Positions 297-12,824 of a DNA stretch of 30,252 bases are shown here, piece by piece; the stretch's first letter is position 1, and each line of letters starts with the position of its first letter. The translations under genes were made by a program, and so were the position numbers. Where the stretch lies: the IMG/VR virus record IMGVR_UViG_2548876960_000006. One strand, given 5' to 3'. The notes beneath the pieces were generated by a model that saw only the letters and a list, made by a program, of their open reading frames with translations, was not told the origin of the DNA and ran no database searches. The DNA is from a virus (lineage: Duplodnaviria > Heunggongvirae > Uroviricota > Caudoviricetes).

Positions 297-1337
297 CTAA
301 GCTGTCGCGACATTTTTGCGACATTTTAGGGGGTTAAGTCGCACAGCATCTTCAAGGTGGCTTGGGGCGAAGTGGGCATAACGCATTGTCATGGTTATGT
401 CAGCGTGGCCGAGAATTTTTTGCAAAACCAGAATGTTTCCGCCGTTCATCATAAAGTGGCTGGCAAATGTATGGCGCAGTACATGGGTAAGCTGGCCGGA
501 GGGGAGTTCAATGCCTGCGCGTTCCAGAGCAGAGCGGAAAGCGTTGTAGCAGGGCTTGGGGAACAGAGCGCCTTTTGTTTCAGGTAATTCGGACAGAAGT
601 TCATCATCAAGGGGAATTGTTCTGTTGCGCTTCCCTTTGGTTTTGACGAACGTGACTTTACCCCCGGCGATCTGGGAGCTTTTCAGCGTTGCCGCCTCAT
701 TCCACCTTGCGCCGGTAGCAAGGCAGATTTTGACAACTAATTCTAGGTACTTAACTTTGCTTCGTTTGCATTCCAGTAAAAGCCGATCAATTTCTTCGGT
801 AGTGAGGAAAGCCATTTCGGTTTCATCAGTACGATACTGTCTGACGTTTTCCAGTGGGTTGGGTGCTGACCATTCACCAATCCGTTTCAGTTCATTGAAC
901 ATCGCTAGAAAGTAAGCATGTTCAAGGTTCATAGTTTTCGGGGAAACCTTAGATACTCTGTTGGTGCGGGCATAATGCCCATCCAGCCTTTTAGCGCGGT
1001 AGGCTGTGAACAACTGGGCATTAAATTCTGTGGCCAGCGGGAATCCCATGCATTCCGCCGCCCAGGTCATAGCATCTTTACGCTTTTCGCCATTGCTCAA
1101 AGCTACGCCGTGGCGTTCATACCACATTGTTATCAGATCTATTAAAGTTCGCTTGTCCTTCCCTTCACCCAGCCACGGAGCTGCGTCTACTTTCTGAAGC
1201 GTATGGTTTTCGAATGCCAGGGCTTCCCCTTTCGTGGCAAATTTTTTACGTATACGCTTCCCGTTCTTGCCATTACTGCGGTTGACGGTGTAGAAGTCGG
1301 CGATCCATTCGCCTGTAGGAAGTTTACGAACGCTCAT
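297..1337 (-). CDS. int: tyrosine recombinase / phage integrase
   Basis: 346-aa ORF with C-terminal catalytic-type motifs HVLRHTFASHF and MRYAHF; lies directly downstream of the repressor gene on the same strand, as in the 186 cI-int arrangement. Confidence 0.9.
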   Translation of the reverse strand: MSVRKLPTGEWIADFYTVNRSNGKNGKRIRKKFATKGEALAFENHTLQKVDAAPWLGEGKDKRTLIDLITMWYERHGVALSNGEKRKDAMTWAAECMGFPLATEFNAQLFTAYRAKRLDGHYARTNRVSKVSPKTMNLEHAYFLAMFNELKRIGEWSAPNPLENVRQYRTDETEMAFLTTEEIDRLLLECKRSKVKYLELVVKICLATGARWNEAATLKSSQIAGGKVTFVKTKGKRNRTIPLDDELLSELPETKGALFPKPCYNAFRSALERAGIELPSGQLTHVLRHTFASHFMMNGGNILVLQKILGHADITMTMRYAHFAPSHLEDAVRLNPLKCRKNVATA

Positions 1338-1338
1338 T

Positions 1339-1920
1339 TTATTTTATCGTCAGAACAACGCGGCCTATGATTTTTATGTCGTCAATTCCGCAATCAAATG
1401 CCATACCAACACCGCTAACTCTGACTTTTCGTACCGGAATCCGTGTAAGAGTGCGGACGCTTGTTTTTCCTTCAACTTCAACCAACCAATCATCGTCATA
1501 AACTTCAGAATAAGACTGGTCAACAATGTACTGAATAAGGCCATCCAGAACACAAATCGGTTGTTGCGGTAAGGGCTTGCCAGGCAGGAAGATGACTTTA
1601 TCAAGCATAAGTGTGCCAGCGTCATAGAGTTGGCCATCAACAATCTTGCTGCGCGGCATTTTGAGTATGTCTAATTCATCATCATTAAATTTACGTCCCT
1701 GTCCTGTTGCCAGCCACTCCAGATTAGCGCCTGTTTCGGCTACGCATTTCACGACAATATCTGCCGGGAAAACTCCACGCTTGTAGCGTGAAGAAAGAGA
1801 ACTGGCTGCCATGTCCAGATGTTCCGCGAGCTGTAACTTCTGCGTAAATCCGTAAGCCTCGATCACCCTGTCAAGAATCGGTGTGCTATCTACGTTTAGG
1901 TCGATTTTAAATGTGCTCAT
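1339..1920 (-). CDS. cI: CI-type immunity repressor (186 CI-like, HTH N-terminal domain)
   Basis: ORF divergent from the cox-like gene; HTH-like segment GFTQKLQLAEHLDMAASSLSSRYKRGV. Start placed at ATG 1920 (193 aa); the track start at 1962 is GTG and ATG 1956 is also possible. No LexA-type S24 motif recognised. Confidence 0.6.
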   Translation of the reverse strand: MSTFKIDLNVDSTPILDRVIEAYGFTQKLQLAEHLDMAASSLSSRYKRGVFPADIVVKCVAETGANLEWLATGQGRKFNDDELDILKMPRSKIVDGQLYDAGTLMLDKVIFLPGKPLPQQPICVLDGLIQYIVDQSYSEVYDDDWLVEVEGKTSVRTLTRIPVRKVRVSGVGMAFDCGIDDIKIIGRVVLTIK

Positions 1921-1934
1921 AGCGAATCCATAAG

Positions 1935-1947
1935 TCTCGATTCGAGA
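1935..1947. promoter_or_regulatory. 13-bp perfect palindrome TCTCGATTCGAGA; candidate operator
   Basis: Perfect palindrome read directly; the half-site TCTCGA recurs at 1964..1969 inside the putative pR spacer, and TTCGAA at 1995..2000. Confidence 0.35.
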
Positions 1948-1955
1948 AATTGCCA

Positions 1956-1984
1956 TTGACACTTCTCGAAACGCGAATTAATCT
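1956..1984 (+). promoter_or_regulatory. candidate early lytic promoter (pR-like) for the cox/cII/dam/A operon
   Basis: TTGACA (1956..1961), 17-bp spacer, TAATCT (1979..1984), about 70 nt upstream of the cox-like ATG. Confidence 0.45.
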
Positions 1985-4453: not shown

Positions 4454-5303
4454 AACTCCGCTTAAATGGGTGGGCAGCAAAGCCCGCCTCATGCCTAAGC
4501 TGCGTCCGCACCTTCCAGAAGGTAAACGCCTGGTTGAACCGTTCGCAGGTTCCTGCGCCGTCATGATGAATACGGATTATGACGAGTATCTGATCGCAGA
4601 TGTGAATCCTGACCTGGTTAATCTTTATAAGGCGATGGCGTATCACACTAATGCGCTGCTGAATGAGCTGGAGATCCTGTTTTCTGCCGGTTCGTTAGGT
4701 GATGTAGAAAGCCGTGCCGTTTTCTATTACGCAGTGCGTGATGCTTTCAATCTTTCTGGTGGTAAGGCCGGTTCTGAATCTGTTGAAAATGCTGCGCGTT
4801 TCCTGTACCTGAACCGGCACTGCTTCAATGGTCTGTGTCGGTATAACCGTCGAGGCCAGTTCAACGTCCCGTTCGGTAAGTACAAAAAGCCTTATTTCCC
4901 CGCTGATGAAATCCGCGCCTTTGCTGAAAAAGCAAAACGCGCAACGTTCATTACTGCCCACTATTCAGAAACGCTTGATTTGGTTCGGGGCGGGAGTGAC
5001 GTTGTTTACTGTGATCCGCCTTATCTGACTGATGCCGACAATTTCACCGCTTACCATGAGCGCGGTTTTTCGCATATGGATCAGGGGCGGCTGGCGCGTA
5101 AACTGCGCCGTCTGGCGGAACGTGGGATTCCCGTTGTCGCGTCAAACAGCGATCTGGAAATGGTGCATTACCTGTATGCAGGGTTTGACGCCGTAAAGGT
5201 TAATGCGCCGCGTAGTGTCGGTGCGGCAGCTGCAAGCCCGAAAACGGCGGCAGAGCTGATTCTTAAATGGCCTTTACCGGCGACTTCTGAGGCCAGCGCA
5301 TGA
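4443..5303 (+). CDS. dam: DNA adenine methyltransferase (Dam family, N6-adenine)
   Basis: DPPY catalytic motif ([14 protein letters not shown]), N-terminal [10 protein letters not shown] and EPFAGS AdoMet-binding-type motifs; GGAGG 5 nt upstream of ATG 4443. Track start at 4428 is TTG. Confidence 0.9.
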
Positions 5304-7321
5304 CGCTGGCAATAAACGAACAATGCTATGCCGTTGATGCCTGGAGGCGGGAAACTTTCGCACCAGGCACACCGGCAGACGCGACTATCACAGAACGCCG
5401 CCTGTGGGCTGTAAACCCGCAGGATTATGAATGGCGATCCCGGTACCTGCATGAGATACCCGACTGGTTAGCCGGGTATTTTGGCCGTCGCTATGAAAAG
5501 CTTTTTTCTGGCCGTGACGGGCGTCGCCGTGCCAATACATTCCTGCGCAAAACAATCGGTGAGAATGTATTGCCACGTCTGCGCAAAGTGGCTGCGCGTT
5601 ACTCGCTGGCCGCTGATGCTGCTGATCTTCCTTTTGGTAAGTCGCTGGAGCGCTTGCCGTCACTAGACCGTCCTGATCTTAAAAAACTGGCTGGCCAGGT
5701 ATCTGGCTGGATTTCCCAGTCACTTTATGACTTCACCGAACAGTTTGATTCCGGCACTGACGACGCCAGAGAGCTGCATCGCCGCACTCTGGAATCTTAC
5801 CGCCATCTTTGTGCCTGTTGCCTGATGCTGAATAACCAGCCGCCGTACTGGACTGAACATGAGGCCAATGAAGGTCAACTGGAAATGCGTAAGGCGGAAT
5901 CCGGGATACTGCGCATGATGGCGCCGGAATGGTGGTACCTGCGTCTTAAACGTGCGCGTGATACGCAGCGCGAGCACATGGCCATTGCGGTGGGACAGGT
6001 GCAAAAAGCGGCCAGCGCTTATGTATCCCGCAAAACACTGGGTGAATGGATAGACCAGAAAAAGCGGAATCTGGAGTTCTTTAAAAAGTTTGATCTGCTG
6101 AATGATGAGGGGCTGCGCATTGCACTGGACAGCATGGTGCACCGCAGCGTTGCAAATCCGGCGATCCGTCGATGTGAACTAATGGTAAGAATGCGAGGGT
6201 TTGAAGATATGGCCAATGAAGAAGGGCTGGCCGGTGAGTTTTACACTATCACCGCGCCATCACGTTTCCATGCGGTTCACAGCAAAGGGGGCTTTGTATC
6301 GCAATGGGATGGAAGTACGCCGCAGGATACCCAGCGCTATTTATGCGGCGTATGGGCAAAAGCGCGTGCAGCGATCTCGCGTGCTGGTATCCATGTATTT
6401 GGGTTTCGGGTTGTTGAGCCTCACCATGACGGGACACCGCACTGGCATATGTTGCTTTTTATGCGTCCGCAGGACGTGGACACGGTACGCGATATTCTTT
6501 GTTATCACGCCAGAATTACCGATTCTGAAGAACTGCAATCTGAAAAGGCGCTGAAGGCGCGTTTTCATGTTGAAGCTATCGATCCCGCCAAAGGTTCGGC
6601 CACGGGCTACATCGCGAAATACATTTCAAAAAATATTGATGGTTTTGCGCTGGATGGTGAGCAGGACGAAGAAACCGGCGAAAACCTGCGTGATATGGCT
6701 AAGTCCGTTTCCGCGTGGGCTTCACGCTGGCGTATTCGCCAGTTTCAGCAGATTGGTGGTGCGCCGGTAACCGTCTGGCGTGAGCTGCGTCGGTTGCGGG
6801 ATCAGGTACTGACAGATCGCAGAATGGATGCGGTTCTGGCCGCTGCTGATGTCGGGGACTGGGCTGCATATACCCAGGCGCAGGGAGGTGCACTGGTTGC
6901 CCGCCGTGATCTGGTTGTTCGTCTGGCCTATGAAATTACGGAACAGGGCAACGAATACGCGGAGGACGTGCAGCGCGTACAGGGTGTTTATTCTCCTTTG
7001 ATTCCTGATTCAGAAGTTTGCACCCGTCTGGTTAAGTGGCAAAAGGTTGCGAAGTTGGCCGAAGCGCCAGCGGAGGCGGGTTTTTCTGGCGGCAACGCCG
7101 CCCCTTGGAGTTCTGTCAATAACTGTACGGAGGGGGGAACCCGCAGACGGTTAAAACTGGAATTACGCAGTCGGGGTTTTGAGGGTTCCGATGAAGAAAT
7201 AGCCATTCTCCTGCGGGGTAGTGGTTTGATATTTGGTCAGGGGGCACTGATTTACCGCAATGGGCGGTTGAAGGAAACACGAAACGAACCATTGCAGGAG
7301 CTTTGGCCGGGGTGGTTATAG
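5300..7321 (+). CDS. rolling-circle replication initiator endonuclease (P2 gpA / 186 A family)
   Basis: 673 aa; HUH-type motif HPHHDGTPHWHMLLF and tyrosine motif GYIAKYISK; ATGA overlap with the dam stop. Confidence 0.85.
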   Translation: MTLAINEQCYAVDAWRRETFAPGTPADATITERRLWAVNPQDYEWRSRYLHEIPDWLAGYFGRRYEKLFSGRDGRRRANTFLRKTIGENVLPRLRKVAARYSLAADAADLPFGKSLERLPSLDRPDLKKLAGQVSGWISQSLYDFTEQFDSGTDDARELHRRTLESYRHLCACCLMLNNQPPYWTEHEANEGQLEMRKAESGILRMMAPEWWYLRLKRARDTQREHMAIAVGQVQKAASAYVSRKTLGEWIDQKKRNLEFFKKFDLLNDEGLRIALDSMVHRSVANPAIRRCELMVRMRGFEDMANEEGLAGEFYTITAPSRFHAVHSKGGFVSQWDGSTPQDTQRYLCGVWAKARAAISRAGIHVFGFRVVEPHHDGTPHWHMLLFMRPQDVDTVRDILCYHARITDSEELQSEKALKARFHVEAIDPAKGSATGYIAKYISKNIDGFALDGEQDEETGENLRDMAKSVSAWASRWRIRQFQQIGGAPVTVWRELRRLRDQVLTDRRMDAVLAAADVGDWAAYTQAQGGALVARRDLVVRLAYEITEQGNEYAEDVQRVQGVYSPLIPDSEVCTRLVKWQKVAKLAEAPAEAGFSGGNAAPWSSVNNCTEGGTRRRLKLELRSRGFEGSDEEIAILLRGSGLIFGQGALIYRNGRLKETRNEPLQELWPGWL

Positions 7322-7398
7322 GTGTGCATGTGTGTGTAACACATTCATTTGTCAGTAGATGGCAGGAAATTAAATTTCACAATTCGTGCTTTAAGGTG

Positions 7399-7418
7399 TA
7401 CTGTATGTATATCCAGTT
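7399..7418. promoter_or_regulatory. LexA-box-like SOS operator candidate
   Basis: TACTGTATGTATATCCAGTT; the 16-mer core CTGTATGTATATCCAG matches consensus CTGT-(AT)4-ACAG at 14 of 16 positions; about 25 nt upstream of the ATG at 7441. Confidence 0.4.
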
Positions 7419-7440
7419 ATTTATTGCTTGTGGGGGCTAA

Positions 7441-7647
7441 ATGGATCTTTTGGAGGCGTCGGCACAGCTGGAACGCATTGAGTTATTGGCCAAAATTGCC
7501 CATGTTTACGAAAGTAACCAGAGAGAAAAAACAATCGCTTTGGCCTGGATTGGAGAGCTTGCGGGAGAGGTTCGCGAAATGGTTAAAAAGGAAGGGCAAC
7601 GCCCCCAGAATGGGGGCATTTCAGGCGGCGGGAGTCGCTTTCAGTAG
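7441..7647 (+). CDS. small hypothetical protein (68 aa), possibly SOS-regulated
   Basis: ATG 7441 preceded by a G-rich stretch; MDLLEASAQLERIELLAKIAHVYESNQREKTIALAWIGELAGEVREMVKKEGQRPQNGGISGGGSRFQ; its 3' end overlaps the ogr 3' end convergently. Confidence 0.35.
   Translation: MDLLEASAQLERIELLAKIAHVYESNQREKTIALAWIGELAGEVREMVKKEGQRPQNGGISGGGSRFQ
7585..7617 (-). terminator. possible terminator downstream of ogr (non-canonical)
   Basis: GCCCCC (7601..7606), 5-nt loop, GGGGGC (7612..7617), immediately 3' of the ogr stop on the minus strand; the T-run begins about 10 nt after the stem. Confidence 0.25.
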
Positions 7648-7890
7648 GTCTAATGCCATCTGGCGCTGATCGGGTGAAAGTGCATTCAGTATTTTTTGCA
7701 CCATCGCATCACCCGCTTTAGCGCTGGGGCTGAGAGTGTGGGAGAACGTCAGATTCATAACAAACGTGTGGCCACACTCAACATCTGAACAGGCGCAGTA
7801 AATATCCGCAATTTGCCGGTGCTTCCTGTTCGTTTTACGAATAACAGCCTTTGAGCCGCATTCCGGGCATTCGATTTTCAGAACTCGCAT
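7621..7890 (-). CDS. ogr: Ogr/Delta-type zinc-finger late-gene transcription activator
   Basis: Cys-rich finger CPECG ... YCACSDVEC as in P2 Ogr / 186 B; start taken at ATG 7890 (GGAG upstream). An in-frame ATG at 7944 overlaps the portal stop (ATGA) and would give a 107-aa N-extended form. Confidence 0.8.
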   Translation of the reverse strand: MRVLKIECPECGSKAVIRKTNRKHRQIADIYCACSDVECGHTFVMNLTFSHTLSPSAKAGDAMVQKILNALSPDQRQMALDLLKATPAA

Positions 7891-7940
7891 ATTCCATGCT
7901 CCAGCTGTTAAATGATGCCTGGATTTTAGCCTGTTTCGCC

Positions 7941-9002
7941 TCATGCCGCACCCTTATCCGTTGATTCTGTGTAACTTAAATCAAAGTTAAGGTGTAGCCT
8001 TTCCGGTATTTCGGGATCATTGTTAACGGCCAGCATAAAACGGCGCTGGATGGGGGCAATTTCGCTTTTCTTGTAAATGCGTTCAGCCTTTTCAACATCC
8101 CCCAGTCCGGCAGTGTTCTGCGGGACAATACCGGCGAGGCCAGCAGGGAAACGGTGAGCGTTCAGAATGTCCTGGGCGCTGATGTTCTTGATGTTGGCAA
8201 ATTCATCCTTTGCGGAAATATCCCCCATTTCAATGAATTTGATGGCGTCGCCGTCTCCACCGGGAATGTTTACAAGGATGGTGGAGAAGTTACCGATCCC
8301 TTTGCTGTCACGCAGCTGCTGTTCAATTTCTTCCTCCATTTCGTCCGTCATGCTGGGATCGCGGGTATAAAGAATACCGCCTGTGTGCGCACCATTGTGG
8401 TAATAGCGGCGTCGGAAAATGACCGCTTCACTGTTAAGTAACGCGGAATGCACACCGCCTATGTAGTCCGGCAGCCCGTAGATATGCTGTTGCGGGTCAT
8501 ACATTTTGATGAAGATAATATCTTCTTCTGGCCATACCTGCGGTTCCCCTTCCTGTAACACCACGTAGTCACCAGGCTTATCCAGGGCGTTATCTCTGAC
8601 TTTGCGGCGGCGAATATACAGACCGGGCAAGGGTTCAAGTGCGATCACGTCACCCCAGCCGTTACGAATTTTGGCAATCGCAATATCCCCAAAGGTTATA
8701 TAGTCAAACGCTGCCGCTTCCAGCTGGTCGTGAATAAGCCCGCCCCCCTGGTAGTCTGAAACAATCATGTTTTTACGGGCGTGAATGATGCCGCCGTGCT
8801 GACCGTTAAGATTAATCAGTTGCGCGAGTGCCAGCCGGTCAATCGGCTGGGTGAAGTGATCGGCGGCATTGTCGTACCAGATATCACGGTAATCTGTGCC
8901 GGTAGTCAGAACTGGTTCAGGTTTGCCGAATGTGATAATGCTCATCTTTTTTGATTTGTCGCCGCGCTGGTCGCGCTTAACAAAGCGTTTCTTTTTACTC
9001 AT
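7941..9002 (-). CDS. portal protein (P2 gpQ-like)
   Basis: 353 aa (P2 Q is 344 aa); ATGA overlap with the terminase large-subunit stop; divergent from the O-N-M-L operon as in P2. Confidence 0.85.
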   Translation of the reverse strand: MSKKKRFVKRDQRGDKSKKMSIITFGKPEPVLTTGTDYRDIWYDNAADHFTQPIDRLALAQLINLNGQHGGIIHARKNMIVSDYQGGGLIHDQLEAAAFDYITFGDIAIAKIRNGWGDVIALEPLPGLYIRRRKVRDNALDKPGDYVVLQEGEPQVWPEEDIIFIKMYDPQQHIYGLPDYIGGVHSALLNSEAVIFRRRYYHNGAHTGGILYTRDPSMTDEMEEEIEQQLRDSKGIGNFSTILVNIPGGDGDAIKFIEMGDISAKDEFANIKNISAQDILNAHRFPAGLAGIVPQNTAGLGDVEKAERIYKKSEIAPIQRRFMLAVNNDPEIPERLHLNFDLSYTESTDKGAA

Positions 9003-10774
9003 GCTGCCTCTTTCCTTACACCCCAGCGGGATTTAGGTTTGTTTTCATAATTAAGGGGTTCGTTATGCAGACCGTGGGTAATCGCCCAGAACGCCTCCGC
9101 GTGGCCGGTATCCTGGCTGCGGTCAGCGACAAACGTCATGGCGTTGCCGCTTTGTGTGGTGGTTCGGCGCACAGACATAAAGCTGGCGGCGATCTCTTTC
9201 AGGTTTTTATCCCACTCAATACGCTGGCTTTCCACCACGTCCACCGCTTTCAGTACCAGCTTATTTTTGGTGTTCAGGTCGTAACGAATAGGGACGGCCA
9301 CGCGCATGGCAAAATGCTGAATGTTGTCAAAAACACCCTGGCCAATGCCGGTAACGTCCACCCCCAGATATGTGAAGTTGTATTTTTTGAACAACTGCTC
9401 GATCTGTTTTGCCTGGTACCGGAAGTTCATGCCTTTCCAGTAAATCACCTTCAGAACGCGGAACTTCTCCACGGCGAGCATCGGTGGGGCGATGATGACA
9501 AAACAGGACAAATCCCCGCTGCGAGCCGGGTCAAAGCCGCCCCACACTGGCCTGTCACCGAATGGCCGCGCTGCATCTGGGTTGTGATCCTGCCAGGTGT
9601 CGATTTCAACGCCGCAGGCTTCCAGGTCGGAAAAGCTGAAAACGGAATCTTTGCTGTCAACGAACACGCACATATAGAGCATGTTAAAAGTGGCGTCGTT
9701 GTAGCGGTTGCGAAGTTTCTCGATGTTCGCCAGGTTGAAACCGCCCGCAATGGCATCTTCCATCGTAATGACGTAGCGCCATTGCCCATCCGGGCAGAGT
9801 CGCCCGCCGTCACGCATTTCGTTAAAGGAAGGAAACTTAATGGCCGCACGTTTTTTACTGCCCTGTTTCCACTCATCGCCCGTCCAGAACGGGTACGCCT
9901 GGTGCGTTTTTGCCGATGGCGTTGAAAAATAGGTGGTACGCCACTTGTCATGCGTGGCCATTGCGCTGGCCACTTCGTTAAGTTTTGCAAAGTTTGGTAC
10001 CCAGAAATATTCGTCACAGTACAGGTGGCCACTGTAGGACTGGGCGGTGTTTTTGTTGGTGGAGAGAAAACGCAGTTCTGCGCCGTTGCTTAAGCGGATC
10101 GGGTTACCGGTCAGCGTAATACCGAAATACTGCTCTGCAATATTCACGATGTAAGACCGGAACACTTCAGCCTGAGCCTTTGACGCTGACAGAAAGATTT
10201 GCGGATCGCCGGTCATCACCGCGTTTTCAAACGCTTCAAACGCAAAATACCAGGTCGCACCGATCTGGCGGCTTTTCAGGATATTCCTGACAAGCTGGCC
10301 AATGTTATTGCGCAGGTGTTTCTGATATTCAAAAAGATGTTCCTCAGCCCATGCGTCAAAGTCCTCCTGCGTCAGCGAGGTAATATCGTTTTTCTTGTAC
10401 TTCCGTTTGCTGCGCGGTTCGTCGTCATTGTTGTCCCGCGCAGCTGCTTGCCCGGAACTCTGACCGCTGGCCATTTTCTCTTTGTGTTTATTACTCTGCG
10501 CACGCAGTTTCGTGGCATGAGCAATGAGCATGTCCATTTCTTTCAGGTCGAGATCGGTTTTGTTATCGCGGCTGGCCAGCAGTTGGTAACGGCGTTCAAT
10601 CGCTTCCTCTGTGCTTTCAAAACTGAGCAAATCCGCCCAGCTGTATTTCTCCGCCCAGTAGTAAACGATCCGCGCATTCGGCAGATTTAATTCAGATGCG
10701 ATTTCCTTTGGCGTATAGCGGCGCAGATAAAGTGCGCGAACAACGCCTTTTAATTCTTCAGAGTATTTAGCCAT
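8999..10774 (-). CDS. terminase large (ATPase) subunit (P2 gpP-like)
   Basis: 591 aa (P2 P is 590 aa); first gene of the leftward P-Q operon, divergent from the scaffold gene. Confidence 0.9.
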   Translation of the reverse strand: MAKYSEELKGVVRALYLRRYTPKEIASELNLPNARIVYYWAEKYSWADLLSFESTEEAIERRYQLLASRDNKTDLDLKEMDMLIAHATKLRAQSNKHKEKMASGQSSGQAAARDNNDDEPRSKRKYKKNDITSLTQEDFDAWAEEHLFEYQKHLRNNIGQLVRNILKSRQIGATWYFAFEAFENAVMTGDPQIFLSASKAQAEVFRSYIVNIAEQYFGITLTGNPIRLSNGAELRFLSTNKNTAQSYSGHLYCDEYFWVPNFAKLNEVASAMATHDKWRTTYFSTPSAKTHQAYPFWTGDEWKQGSKKRAAIKFPSFNEMRDGGRLCPDGQWRYVITMEDAIAGGFNLANIEKLRNRYNDATFNMLYMCVFVDSKDSVFSFSDLEACGVEIDTWQDHNPDAARPFGDRPVWGGFDPARSGDLSCFVIIAPPMLAVEKFRVLKVIYWKGMNFRYQAKQIEQLFKKYNFTYLGVDVTGIGQGVFDNIQHFAMRVAVPIRYDLNTKNKLVLKAVDVVESQRIEWDKNLKEIAASFMSVRRTTTQSGNAMTFVADRSQDTGHAEAFWAITHGLHNEPLNYENKPKSRWGVRKEAA

Positions 10775-10935: not shown

Positions 10936-11739
10936 ATGTCACATTTAAAAACTGACTGGCTGTGTGTTGCTACTGAAGGGGATACCGTTGACGGCAGGGT
11001 AATTAAACGGCAGTGGATCATTGATATGGGGGAAACCTATGACTATAGCCACTATGTCGCTTTAATCTGGCCAGAACATGAGGATGATTGCGGGAATTTT
11101 GGTGAAGTGCTGGAAGCCACCTGGAATGATGGTGAAGATGGACTGGCACGGTTATATGTCAGCCTTTGCCCGAATATGCGTCTGATTTTCGCAAATCATG
11201 AAGATCAGCTTTTGTTCTTCTCCATTGAGCCGGAAGAAAACTGGCGCGGTAGCGGGCGTACTTACCTGAAAGGGCTGGCGGTAACAGATACACCTGCCAG
11301 CGTTGGCACCACACGGCTGCGTTTTAGTAGTCGGCGCAATAAATTAACAAAGCAGGGATATTACAGTTGTGTAATTTCCCGTGACGGAAAAATTAAACAG
11401 GAAGCAAGAATGAAGAACTGGCAGAAACGGTTTGGTATTAAGCCAAAGTTTGAAGATGAAACGCCACAGGATAATCCTGCCCCGGATGAAGATAAATTAC
11501 AGGCGCTTGCCAATGTAGTGAACGATCTGGAAGCGCGAGTGGCGAAAATTGAAAATCAACTGAATGACGTTCAGGGTGATGTTGACACAATCGCTGAAGT
11601 GGTGGATACGCAGGAATTTGCGGCAATCCGCGATAATGCAAAAGAAATCGTAACCCGCTTTAACGATCTGGGTAATAAAAACACCCGTACACCGGGGCGT
11701 ACTATTAAAGATAAAGCCGGGAAATTTAATTTCCTGTAA
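10936..11739 (+). CDS. capsid scaffolding protein (P2 gpO-like)
   Basis: N-terminal VATEGDTVDGRVI motif characteristic of gpO-family scaffold proteins; ATG 10936 after a G-rich RBS. Track start at 10900 is TTG. Confidence 0.8.
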   Translation: MSHLKTDWLCVATEGDTVDGRVIKRQWIIDMGETYDYSHYVALIWPEHEDDCGNFGEVLEATWNDGEDGLARLYVSLCPNMRLIFANHEDQLLFFSIEPEENWRGSGRTYLKGLAVTDTPASVGTTRLRFSSRRNKLTKQGYYSCVISRDGKIKQEARMKNWQKRFGIKPKFEDETPQDNPAPDEDKLQALANVVNDLEARVAKIENQLNDVQGDVDTIAEVVDTQEFAAIRDNAKEIVTRFNDLGNKNTRTPGRTIKDKAGKFNFL

Positions 11740-11801: not shown

Positions 11802-12824
11802 ATGCACCTTAATAATCGTGCGCGGGATTTACTGGATAAATACTCGGCGGGGATGGCGCAGCAGTTTGGTGCGCGTGATACCAGTCGATATTTTTCCCTG
11901 AATGACCCGCAGGAAAATGCGCTGCGTCTTGCGCTGCTGGAGTCCGTCGAGTTCCTGAACATGATCACCTGTCTGGATGTTGACCAGCTGAGTGGCCAGG
12001 TGATCTCTGTCGGTTCCTCTGTGCTGCATACCGGCCGCAGCGAAAATGGCCGTTTCATTCGTCAGGTAGGCGTTGACGGTAATGACTATTCCCTGGTTGA
12101 AACAGACAGCTGCGCCGCACTGCGCTGGGATCTGCTTTCTGTCTGGGCAAACGCCGGTAAGGACGAAAACGAGTTTTACAACCTGGTACAGGCATTCACC
12201 ACGCAGGCTTTTGCGCTGGACATGTTGCGCATTGGTTTTAATGGTAAGAGCCGGGCGAAAACCACTGATCCGGTAGCAAACCCGAACGGTGAAGATGTGA
12301 ACATCGGCTGGCATGAGCGTATGAAAACGCTGCTGGGTGGCAATCAGATTATGACCGATCCCGTGGTGCTCGATGAGGCAGGGGATTACAAGTCACTGGA
12401 TGCAATGGCGTCTGATCTGATTAACGCCAAAATCCCGGCACAGTTCCGCAATGACCCGCGTCTGGTTGTCCTGGTCGGTGCCGATCTGGTCGCTGCTGAA
12501 CAGTACCGACTGTATCAGGCAGCAGACCGTCCGACTGAAAAAATTGCTGCGCAGATGCTGGGAAGCACCATTGCTGGCCGTCAGGCCATTATTCCGCCGT
12601 TTATGCCGGGTAAACGCATGGTGGTTACGCCGCTGTCTAACCTGCACATCTACACCCAGCGCAATACCCGTATGCGTAAGGCGGAGTTTGTTGAAGATCG
12701 TAAGCAGTTCGAAAACAAATACCTGCGCAATGAAGGTTACGCGGTGGAAGTACCGGAGCTGTATGCGGCCATTGATGAATCCGCTGTGACAATCGGCAAA
12801 GTCTCCGAACCGGTGGAGGGCTGA
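11802..12824 (+). CDS. major capsid protein (P2 gpN-like)
   Basis: 340 aa with gpN-like landmarks (GFNGKSRAKTTD, GDYKSLDAMASDL); ATG 11802 with GAGGGAG upstream; position O-N-M. Confidence 0.85.
   Translation: MHLNNRARDLLDKYSAGMAQQFGARDTSRYFSLNDPQENALRLALLESVEFLNMITCLDVDQLSGQVISVGSSVLHTGRSENGRFIRQVGVDGNDYSLVETDSCAALRWDLLSVWANAGKDENEFYNLVQAFTTQAFALDMLRIGFNGKSRAKTTDPVANPNGEDVNIGWHERMKTLLGGNQIMTDPVVLDEAGDYKSLDAMASDLINAKIPAQFRNDPRLVVLVGADLVAAEQYRLYQAADRPTEKIAAQMLGSTIAGRQAIIPPFMPGKRMVVTPLSNLHIYTQRNTRMRKAEFVEDRKQFENKYLRNEGYAVEVPELYAAIDESAVTIGKVSEPVEG

Follow-up and report, generated by a model that had tools for sequence, protein, structure and literature searches.

Gene content of the locus

The stretch analysed here (hereafter the window, 30,252 bases) is a P2-family prophage of the 186/ESSI2 type (ESSI2-like, Peduoviridae). 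Its nearest deposited phages are Salmonella phage S.Kent 1-2-1 and the Escherichia ESSI2_ev phages, and near-identical prophages are present in 25 of 5,426 complete E. coli genomes. The features considered in the text are the following (positions in the window):

297–1337, minus strand: integrase
1339–1962, minus strand: CI immunity repressor of the 186 type (Pfam Phage_CI_repr 6e−23 and Phage_CI_C 8e−31; true start codon uncertain)
2023–2277: apl-like ORF
2308–2811: cII (Pfam Phage_CP76)
5300–7321, plus strand: replication gene A (Pfam Phage_GPA 6e−105)
7376–7381, plus strand: −35-like hexamer TTCACA of a putative SOS promoter, the counterpart of 186 p95
7399–7418, strand not applicable: predicted LexA operator (SOS box) TACTGTATGTATATCCAGTT, the first six bases of which double as the −10 hexamer
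7432–7436, plus strand: ribosome-binding site (RBS) GGGGG, read from the sequence, 4 nt before the ATG
7441–7647, plus strand: 68-aa ORF (ATG at 7441, stop at 7647), a stand-alone homologue of the Tum N-terminal (TumA-type) antirepressor
7441–7575: conserved core of the 68-aa ORF (codons 1–45), followed by a variable, probably disordered tail (codons 46–68)
7590–7606, minus strand: terminator-like hairpin and T-run inside the 68-aa ORF, the probable ogr terminator (terminator scan)
7621–7890, minus strand: ogr/Delta-type late activator gene (Pfam Ogr_Delta 9e−20)
7941–9002, minus strand: portal
8999–10774, minus strand: terminase

Accessory genes sit between cII and A. The ogr gene, whose 89-aa form agrees with the annotation of ESSI2_ev040, converges on the 68-aa ORF and overlaps its last 27 bp. 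The intergenic gaps around 7621–7944 measure 50 bp or less, and the terminator scan found no plus-strand terminator after the 68-aa ORF. No match to the P2 cos core sequence was present in the window. In the cI/apl switch region we also observed a perfect palindrome, CCCTGTATTGCCGTACAGGT (2016–2035), with CTGTA...TACAG arms and a GC-rich centre, which reaches only 9.6 bits with the LexA matrix described below and may be a CI or Apl operator. In about half of the E. coli genomes listed, the 68-aa ORF appears in the PGAP annotation as a 'hypothetical protein'; in the others PGAP does not call it, and ogr alone is annotated under the match.

The order A, small ORF, ogr (minus strand), portal (minus strand) recurs in almost all loci of the window's lineage. 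The sequence-only reading had likened this position to that of 186 tum, which it placed between A and the late activator gene B; in the 186 record, tum has A and orf97 as its neighbours, close to the right end of that record, and B is located between D and attP, so that 'between A and B' is wrong for 186. In 186, Fels-2 and the E. coli HS prophage alike, B/ogr is found between D and att, whereas ogr of the window is located directly downstream of portal and overlaps the tum-like ORF. In six related loci (L039, L055, L067, L069, L071, and L073), the tum-like gene and ogr are separated by approximately 0.7–1.3 kb of additional DNA, which could represent cargo genes at the position of 186 orf97.

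Homology of the 68-aa ORF to Tum

A Pfam search with the 68-aa ORF gave no match at E up to 1, and sequence searches of Pfam, NCBIfam, and PDB with the ORF or its family alignment returned nothing; in PHROGs it belongs to phrog_698 (E 2e−22), the function of which is given as unknown. BLASTP nevertheless aligned residues 4–41 with residues 5–42 of 186 Tum (32% identity, 1e−5). As the Pfam DinI domain of 186 Tum covers residues 87–145 only, the ORF resembles the N-terminal, non-DinI half of the protein. Better matches were obtained with short stand-alone genes, namely with Fels-2 STM2728 and E. coli HS ECHS_RS04495, which have identical cores (35% over 43 residues, 9e−9), and with the 60-aa 'tum protein' of Yersinia phage vB_YenM_06.16-2 (41%, 3e−10). 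An unannotated ORF of Yersinia phage vB_YenM_324 is matched by both 186 Tum (3e−6) and the window ORF (2e−3) and thereby bridges the two. When a profile of 18 members of the window family was compared with a profile of the 186, ENT90, Yersinia, Fels-2, and PSP3 proteins, hhalign returned a probability of 97% (E 7.6e−11) over the same 38 columns. The motif common to the multiple alignment reads LERIEL(I/L)A(K/R) ... (K/R)(D/E)x-IAL-x-WI-x-E(L/I)A, although PSP3 TumA is very divergent (11% in the alignment).

An HMM search of 1.8 billion representatives (E up to 0.001) recovered 78 proteins, nearly all of 36–112 aa, and did not reach the 146-aa Tum-type proteins, so the link to Tum rests on pairwise BLASTP, the bridging sequences, and hhalign. 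The stand-alone form is thus the common form of the gene. Close homologues of the 68-aa ORF fall into 66 clusters from Escherichia, Salmonella, Citrobacter, Pluralibacter, Raoultella, and Cronobacter, and every one of them that is named in its source is a 'hypothetical protein'.

Selection and predicted structure point to the same part of the protein. In a set of 40 different alleles of 68 codons, pN/pS amounts to 0.16 in codons 1–45, 0.73 in codons 46–59, and 0.98 in codons 60–68, the nine codons that overlap ogr; by this measure, codons 1–45 are under purifying selection and the tail is almost neutral. AlphaFold2 predicts a helical hairpin (helices 3–21 and 27–53, mean pLDDT 81.5), with confidence dropping after approximately residue 54 (block means 63, then 45) and falling below 50 at residues 62–68. 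Given both the pN/pS values and the AlphaFold2 confidence, the functional unit is probably the N-terminal ~45–53 residues, the part common to Tum, while the remaining tail looks like read-through into sequence antisense to the 3′ end of ogr.

Two other assignments were rejected. Membership of the DinI family (PF06183) is not compatible with a Pfam search that gave no match at E up to 1, and an antirepressor unrelated to Tum is refuted by the homology to the Tum N-terminal half. The latter bears on the sequence-only reading, which saw no similarity to Tum and proposed a distinct small SOS-induced antirepressor: the absence of similarity is contradicted by the BLASTP and hhalign matches, and of the proposal the LexA-repressed antirepressor holds while 'distinct' has to be dropped. 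By homology, we classify the 68-aa ORF as a counterpart of the Tum N-terminal half that is encoded on its own, an arrangement already known from PSP3 TumA and from the tum genes of Fels-2 and E. coli HS.

LexA box and putative promoter

Within the window, only TACTGTATGTATATCCAGTT (7399–7418) agrees with the 20-bp LexA consensus TACTGTATATATATACAGTA at three or fewer mismatches, and no match to this consensus occurred in 100 dinucleotide-preserving shuffles of the window. Sites were also scored with a symmetrised LexA weight matrix built from 25 E. coli operators, which is approximate. With this matrix, TACTGTATGTATATCCAGTT reaches 26.6 bits, on a par with the strongest E. coli operators (the training operators gave 8 to 27 bits in leave-one-out scoring, with dinD at 26.8, umuDC at 26.5, and recA at 21.2), compared with 12.3 bits for the runner-up site in the window. 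The best scores in 200 shuffles averaged 11.2 bits (sd 2.5) and did not exceed 22.0. The looser pattern CTGT-N9-CAG occurs 12 times in the window, and apart from TACTGTATGTATATCCAGTT none of these occurrences scores like a LexA site. The close resemblance to the SOS-box consensus noted in the sequence-only reading is thus borne out by a unique match and by the matrix score; its description of the downstream ORF was accurate as to length, start, and G-rich RBS, and its estimate of about 25 nt between box and ORF corresponds to an actual gap of 22 nt between box and ATG.

A putative promoter is formed by TTCACA (7376–7381), a 17-bp spacer, and TACTGT (7399–7404). It closely resembles 186 p95, which is annotated as TTCACA, 18 bp, TACTGT, and the annotated LexA site of 186, TACTGTATGTTTATACAGTA, begins at the p95 −10 hexamer just as the window box overlaps its own −10. 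The TTCACA/TACTGT promoter was missed by a generic sigma-70 scan, as TACTGT matches the −10 consensus poorly; the scan's own proposal (TTGTCA, 16 bp, TAAATT; 7349–7376) was set aside, as it is not the element conserved among the loci. We anchored on the box the upstream regions of 21 tum-type genes, including those of 186, PSP3, Fels-2, E. coli HS, ENT90, a Yersinia phage, and diverse members of the window's lineage. Most of them have a TTtCACA-like hexamer 17–18 bp upstream of the box and share the order TTtCACA-like hexamer, box, G-rich RBS, start codon.

Conservation across related loci

In total, 88 related loci were retrieved, 86 of which had upstream sequence. The best match to the LexA matrix (18.6–28.3 bits) lies 14–32 nt before the start codon in all but one of these 86. 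The centre of the box varies (ATGTAT, ATGCTT, GTATTT, ATATGC, and others), and the CTG and CAG arms are kept in every one of the 85 boxes, nearly all of which retain the full outer TACTG...CAGT. The loci bearing the box span Escherichia, Salmonella, Citrobacter, Kluyvera, Siccibacter, Pectobacterium, and others; the G-rich stretch at the position of the RBS recurs in related loci, and a LexA box also precedes the tum-type genes of 186, PSP3, Fels-2, E. coli HS, ENT90, and the Yersinia phages. From this pattern of conservation, 7399–7418 is taken to be a genuine, strongly conserved LexA operator at the promoter of a short gene of the Tum antirepressor type.

The lone exception is L018 (IMGVR_UViG_2791354791_000011), in which an ISL3-type insertion sequence interrupts the exact centre of the box (L018 positions 1620–1650 and 2955–2985) of an otherwise 99%-identical prophage. 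The element, approximately 1.3 kb long with inverted ends GGGTCTTCCCC / GGGAAGACCC, codes for a transposase of 406 aa, and an 8-bp target duplication, ATGTATAT, borders it on both sides. Since the insertion parts the tum-like ORF from its promoter, this prophage may be non-inducible or misregulated.

Comparison with known relatives

In phage 186, SOS derepression of p95 leads to induction through sequestration of CI by Tum (PMC7708051), and the 186 record annotates tum as LexA-repressed and inhibiting DNA binding by CI. The two systems have in common a LexA box over the −10 of a TTCACA...TACTGT promoter directly after A and a 186-type CI without self-cleavage. They differ in that 186 Tum (146 aa) is fused to a DinI-like C-terminal domain and followed by orf97, whereas the window has neither DinI sequence nor orf97: tblastn with three DinI-like queries found none in the window at E up to 1, no DinI-like sequence was detected in any locus of the window's lineage at E up to 1e−4, and no orf97 homologue was found in the window.

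Tum has been noted to look like an antirepressor fused to DinI; the tum coding region is reported to be split in two in Fels-2 and PSP3, with the antirepressor activity of PSP3 residing in the upstream gene (PMC3121763). In the PSP3 GenBank record, the 60-aa TumA bears the note 'similar to 5' end 186 tum; UV induction of prophage', and TumB is listed as the DinI homologue. PSP3 TumA and Fels-2 STM2728 (62 aa, annotated only as a hypothetical protein) are, like the window ORF, short stand-alone genes located after A and behind a LexA box; both are followed directly by a separate dinI-like gene, which the window does not have. A DinI-like module is typical of the characterised family members but is not their antirepressor portion; its absence from the window leaves membership of the antirepressor family unaffected, and the ORF can be described as the DinI-less short form of the known Tum antirepressors.

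Functional evidence comes from a P2-like prophage of E. coli HS, in which either deletion of tum or a lexA(Ind−) allele abolishes induction by mitomycin C (PMC12055606). The published tum-deletion primers match the HS locus (L097) around 11469–11620 and 11808–11830, on either side of ECHS_RS04495 (62 aa), the gene immediately ahead of the dinI-like gene; the gene tested experimentally in HS is therefore the short form. This gene, the tum of prophage DuoHS, is like the window ORF a short stand-alone homologue after A under LexA control, with approximately 35% core identity to it; it differs in having a dinI-like gene after it and two LexA boxes in front. Fels-2 likewise has an overlapping pair of LexA boxes, compared with the single one of the window. 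In both HS (L097, 11550–11600) and Fels-2 (L095) the two boxes are offset by 15 bp, and score 23.8 bits plus 16.9 bits (HS) or 15.0 bits (Fels-2), an arrangement reminiscent of colicin promoters; 186 and the window have a single box.

Short Tum-N homologues behind a LexA box, as in the window, were also found in other genera of Peduoviridae, namely in Yersinia phages vB_YenM_06.16-2 and vB_YenM_324 and in Erwinia phage ENT90 (gp09), with 38–41% identity to the window ORF. No credible DinI match was detected in the Yersinia and ENT90 loci that were fetched. Phage vB_YenM_324 shows the same order as the window (A, tum, ogr on the minus strand, portal on the minus strand), and its tum-like ORF is unannotated. 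Beyond this family, the Gifsy-type GfoA and GftA and the N15 AntC are LexA-repressed small proteins that inactivate a non-cleavable repressor (PMC3121763); these belong to other phage groups and repressor families, and are likened to the window system by their regulatory logic.

CI repressor and its possible pairing with Tum

The CI protein of the window (1339–1962) has the same Pfam domain pair as 186 CI and is 43% identical to it, and 34% identical to the CI of the E. coli HS prophage. Pfam found no Peptidase_S24 domain in this ORF, in keeping with the sequence-only reading that it has no LexA-type autocleavage motif. Induction through a self-cleaving repressor of the LexA/lambda-CI type was rejected, given that CI matches only Phage_CI_repr and Phage_CI_C, and, with no self-cleavage domain in CI, no other induction route is visible.

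Covariation between Tum and CI was assessed in 61 distinct Tum/CI combinations. Over all pairs, Tum-core identity correlated with CI identity (Spearman 0.64–0.70) and more strongly with identity of the adjacent A gene (0.80); a partial Mantel test controlling for A gave r of about 0.4 (p 0.001) for both CI domains. The pairing is not tight, since identical Tum cores occur beside CI proteins that are 56–68% identical in their N-terminal part, and, in a few pairs, less than 50% identical. Phage ESSI2_ev040 (L002, 9146–9406) is the clearest single case: its A, ogr, and portal are 97–100% identical to those of the window, but its tum core (34%) and the distant cI (40–42%) are divergent and closer to the HS/Fels-2 type, which indicates that both were exchanged in a mosaic fashion. 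The covariation is only moderate and is partly explained by linkage to A; it gives moderate support to a functional link between Tum and CI, and the combinations suggest that one Tum type may serve several immunity types.

Probable induction switch and alternative explanations

We consider it highly probable that the induction switch of this prophage is a LexA-repressed short Tum cassette, devoid of a DinI-like module, that antagonises the 186-type CI. In the lysogen, host LexA would occupy 7399–7418, over the −10 and the likely transcription start of a weak promoter, and would keep the 68-aa gene silent. Upon DNA damage, active RecA would promote self-cleavage of LexA and the promoter would fire. 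The resulting two-helix protein would bind the non-self-cleaving CI through its conserved N-terminal ~45 residues, and CI kept off its operators would leave the early lytic operon (apl, cII ... A) derepressed. Directly readable from the DNA are the operator, the layout of the promoter, the fact that the ORF is coding, its homology to Tum and TumA, and the type of CI. LexA binding, SOS inducibility, and antagonism of CI would be expected in the window's clade by analogy with 186 Tum, PSP3 TumA, and E. coli HS tum, bearing in mind that identity to the experimentally tested proteins is only 32–35% over about 40 residues. The 186-like mechanism put forward in the sequence-only reading is strengthened by the homology to Tum, the box in 85 of 86 loci, and the 186-type CI, with the binding of LexA and the action on CI argued by homology.

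A different target for the SOS-induced protein is conceivable, such as modulation of RecA/SOS, a division block, or an anti-defence function, with induction of the prophage driven in some other way. That phrog_698 is of 'unknown function', that the named proteins among the 66 close homologues are all hypothetical, and that the Tum core and CI are loosely coupled would fit such a reading. We nevertheless regard it as improbable: the aligned region corresponds to the antirepressor half of Tum (on the evidence of PSP3 TumA) and not to the DinI-like half, loss of the short HS homologue alone blocks induction (PMC12055606), and a CI without a self-cleavage domain leaves no alternative route of induction in sight. 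Slighter still is the chance that the main product is an antisense RNA that runs through ogr and the portal/terminase operon, timing or damping late genes, with the peptide being secondary. The geometry would permit it, as the ORF converges on ogr with the 27-bp overlap and contains the probable ogr terminator, the plus strand shows no terminator, and the convergence is conserved across the lineage. The pN/pS of codons 1–45, however, argues that the peptide itself is selected, the homologues of 186, PSP3, Fels-2, and HS are not followed by ogr, and in several loci approximately 1.3 kb of additional DNA separates the ORF from ogr. A chance match or relic in front of a silent ORF would agree with the failure of PGAP to call the ORF in about half of the listed E. 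coli genomes, but it deserves almost no credence and is effectively refuted, as no shuffle gave a comparable site, the box recurs in loci of many genera, and the ORF is under coding-type constraint.

Two extensions of the LexA-repressed short Tum cassette are put forward as rather unlikely but worth naming. The DinI-less tum cassette could act in trans on co-resident P2-like prophages, comparable to the Gifsy antirepressors, a possibility raised by the occurrence of one Tum core beside CI proteins of clearly different immunity types. Its transcript could also delay late activation, coupling induction to a delay of late genes, since no terminator is seen after it and it would continue, antisense, into ogr and on to the portal/terminase operon.

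Implications

The locus represents no new kind of switch: it is an ordinary one for prophage induction, which annotation almost always misses. That a LexA-repressed antirepressor acts against a non-cleavable CI is established knowledge from the work on 186, and the gain is accordingly one of annotation and not of concept. Because the Tum N-terminal domain has no entry in Pfam, NCBIfam, or PDB and its PHROG has no function assigned, the alignment together with the LexA-box context could seed a family model. The assignment would give a function to a small gene that is usually a 'hypothetical protein' or not called at all, and would account for the induction by DNA damage of the widespread ESSI2-like P2-family prophages of E. 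coli, Salmonella, Citrobacter, and their relatives.
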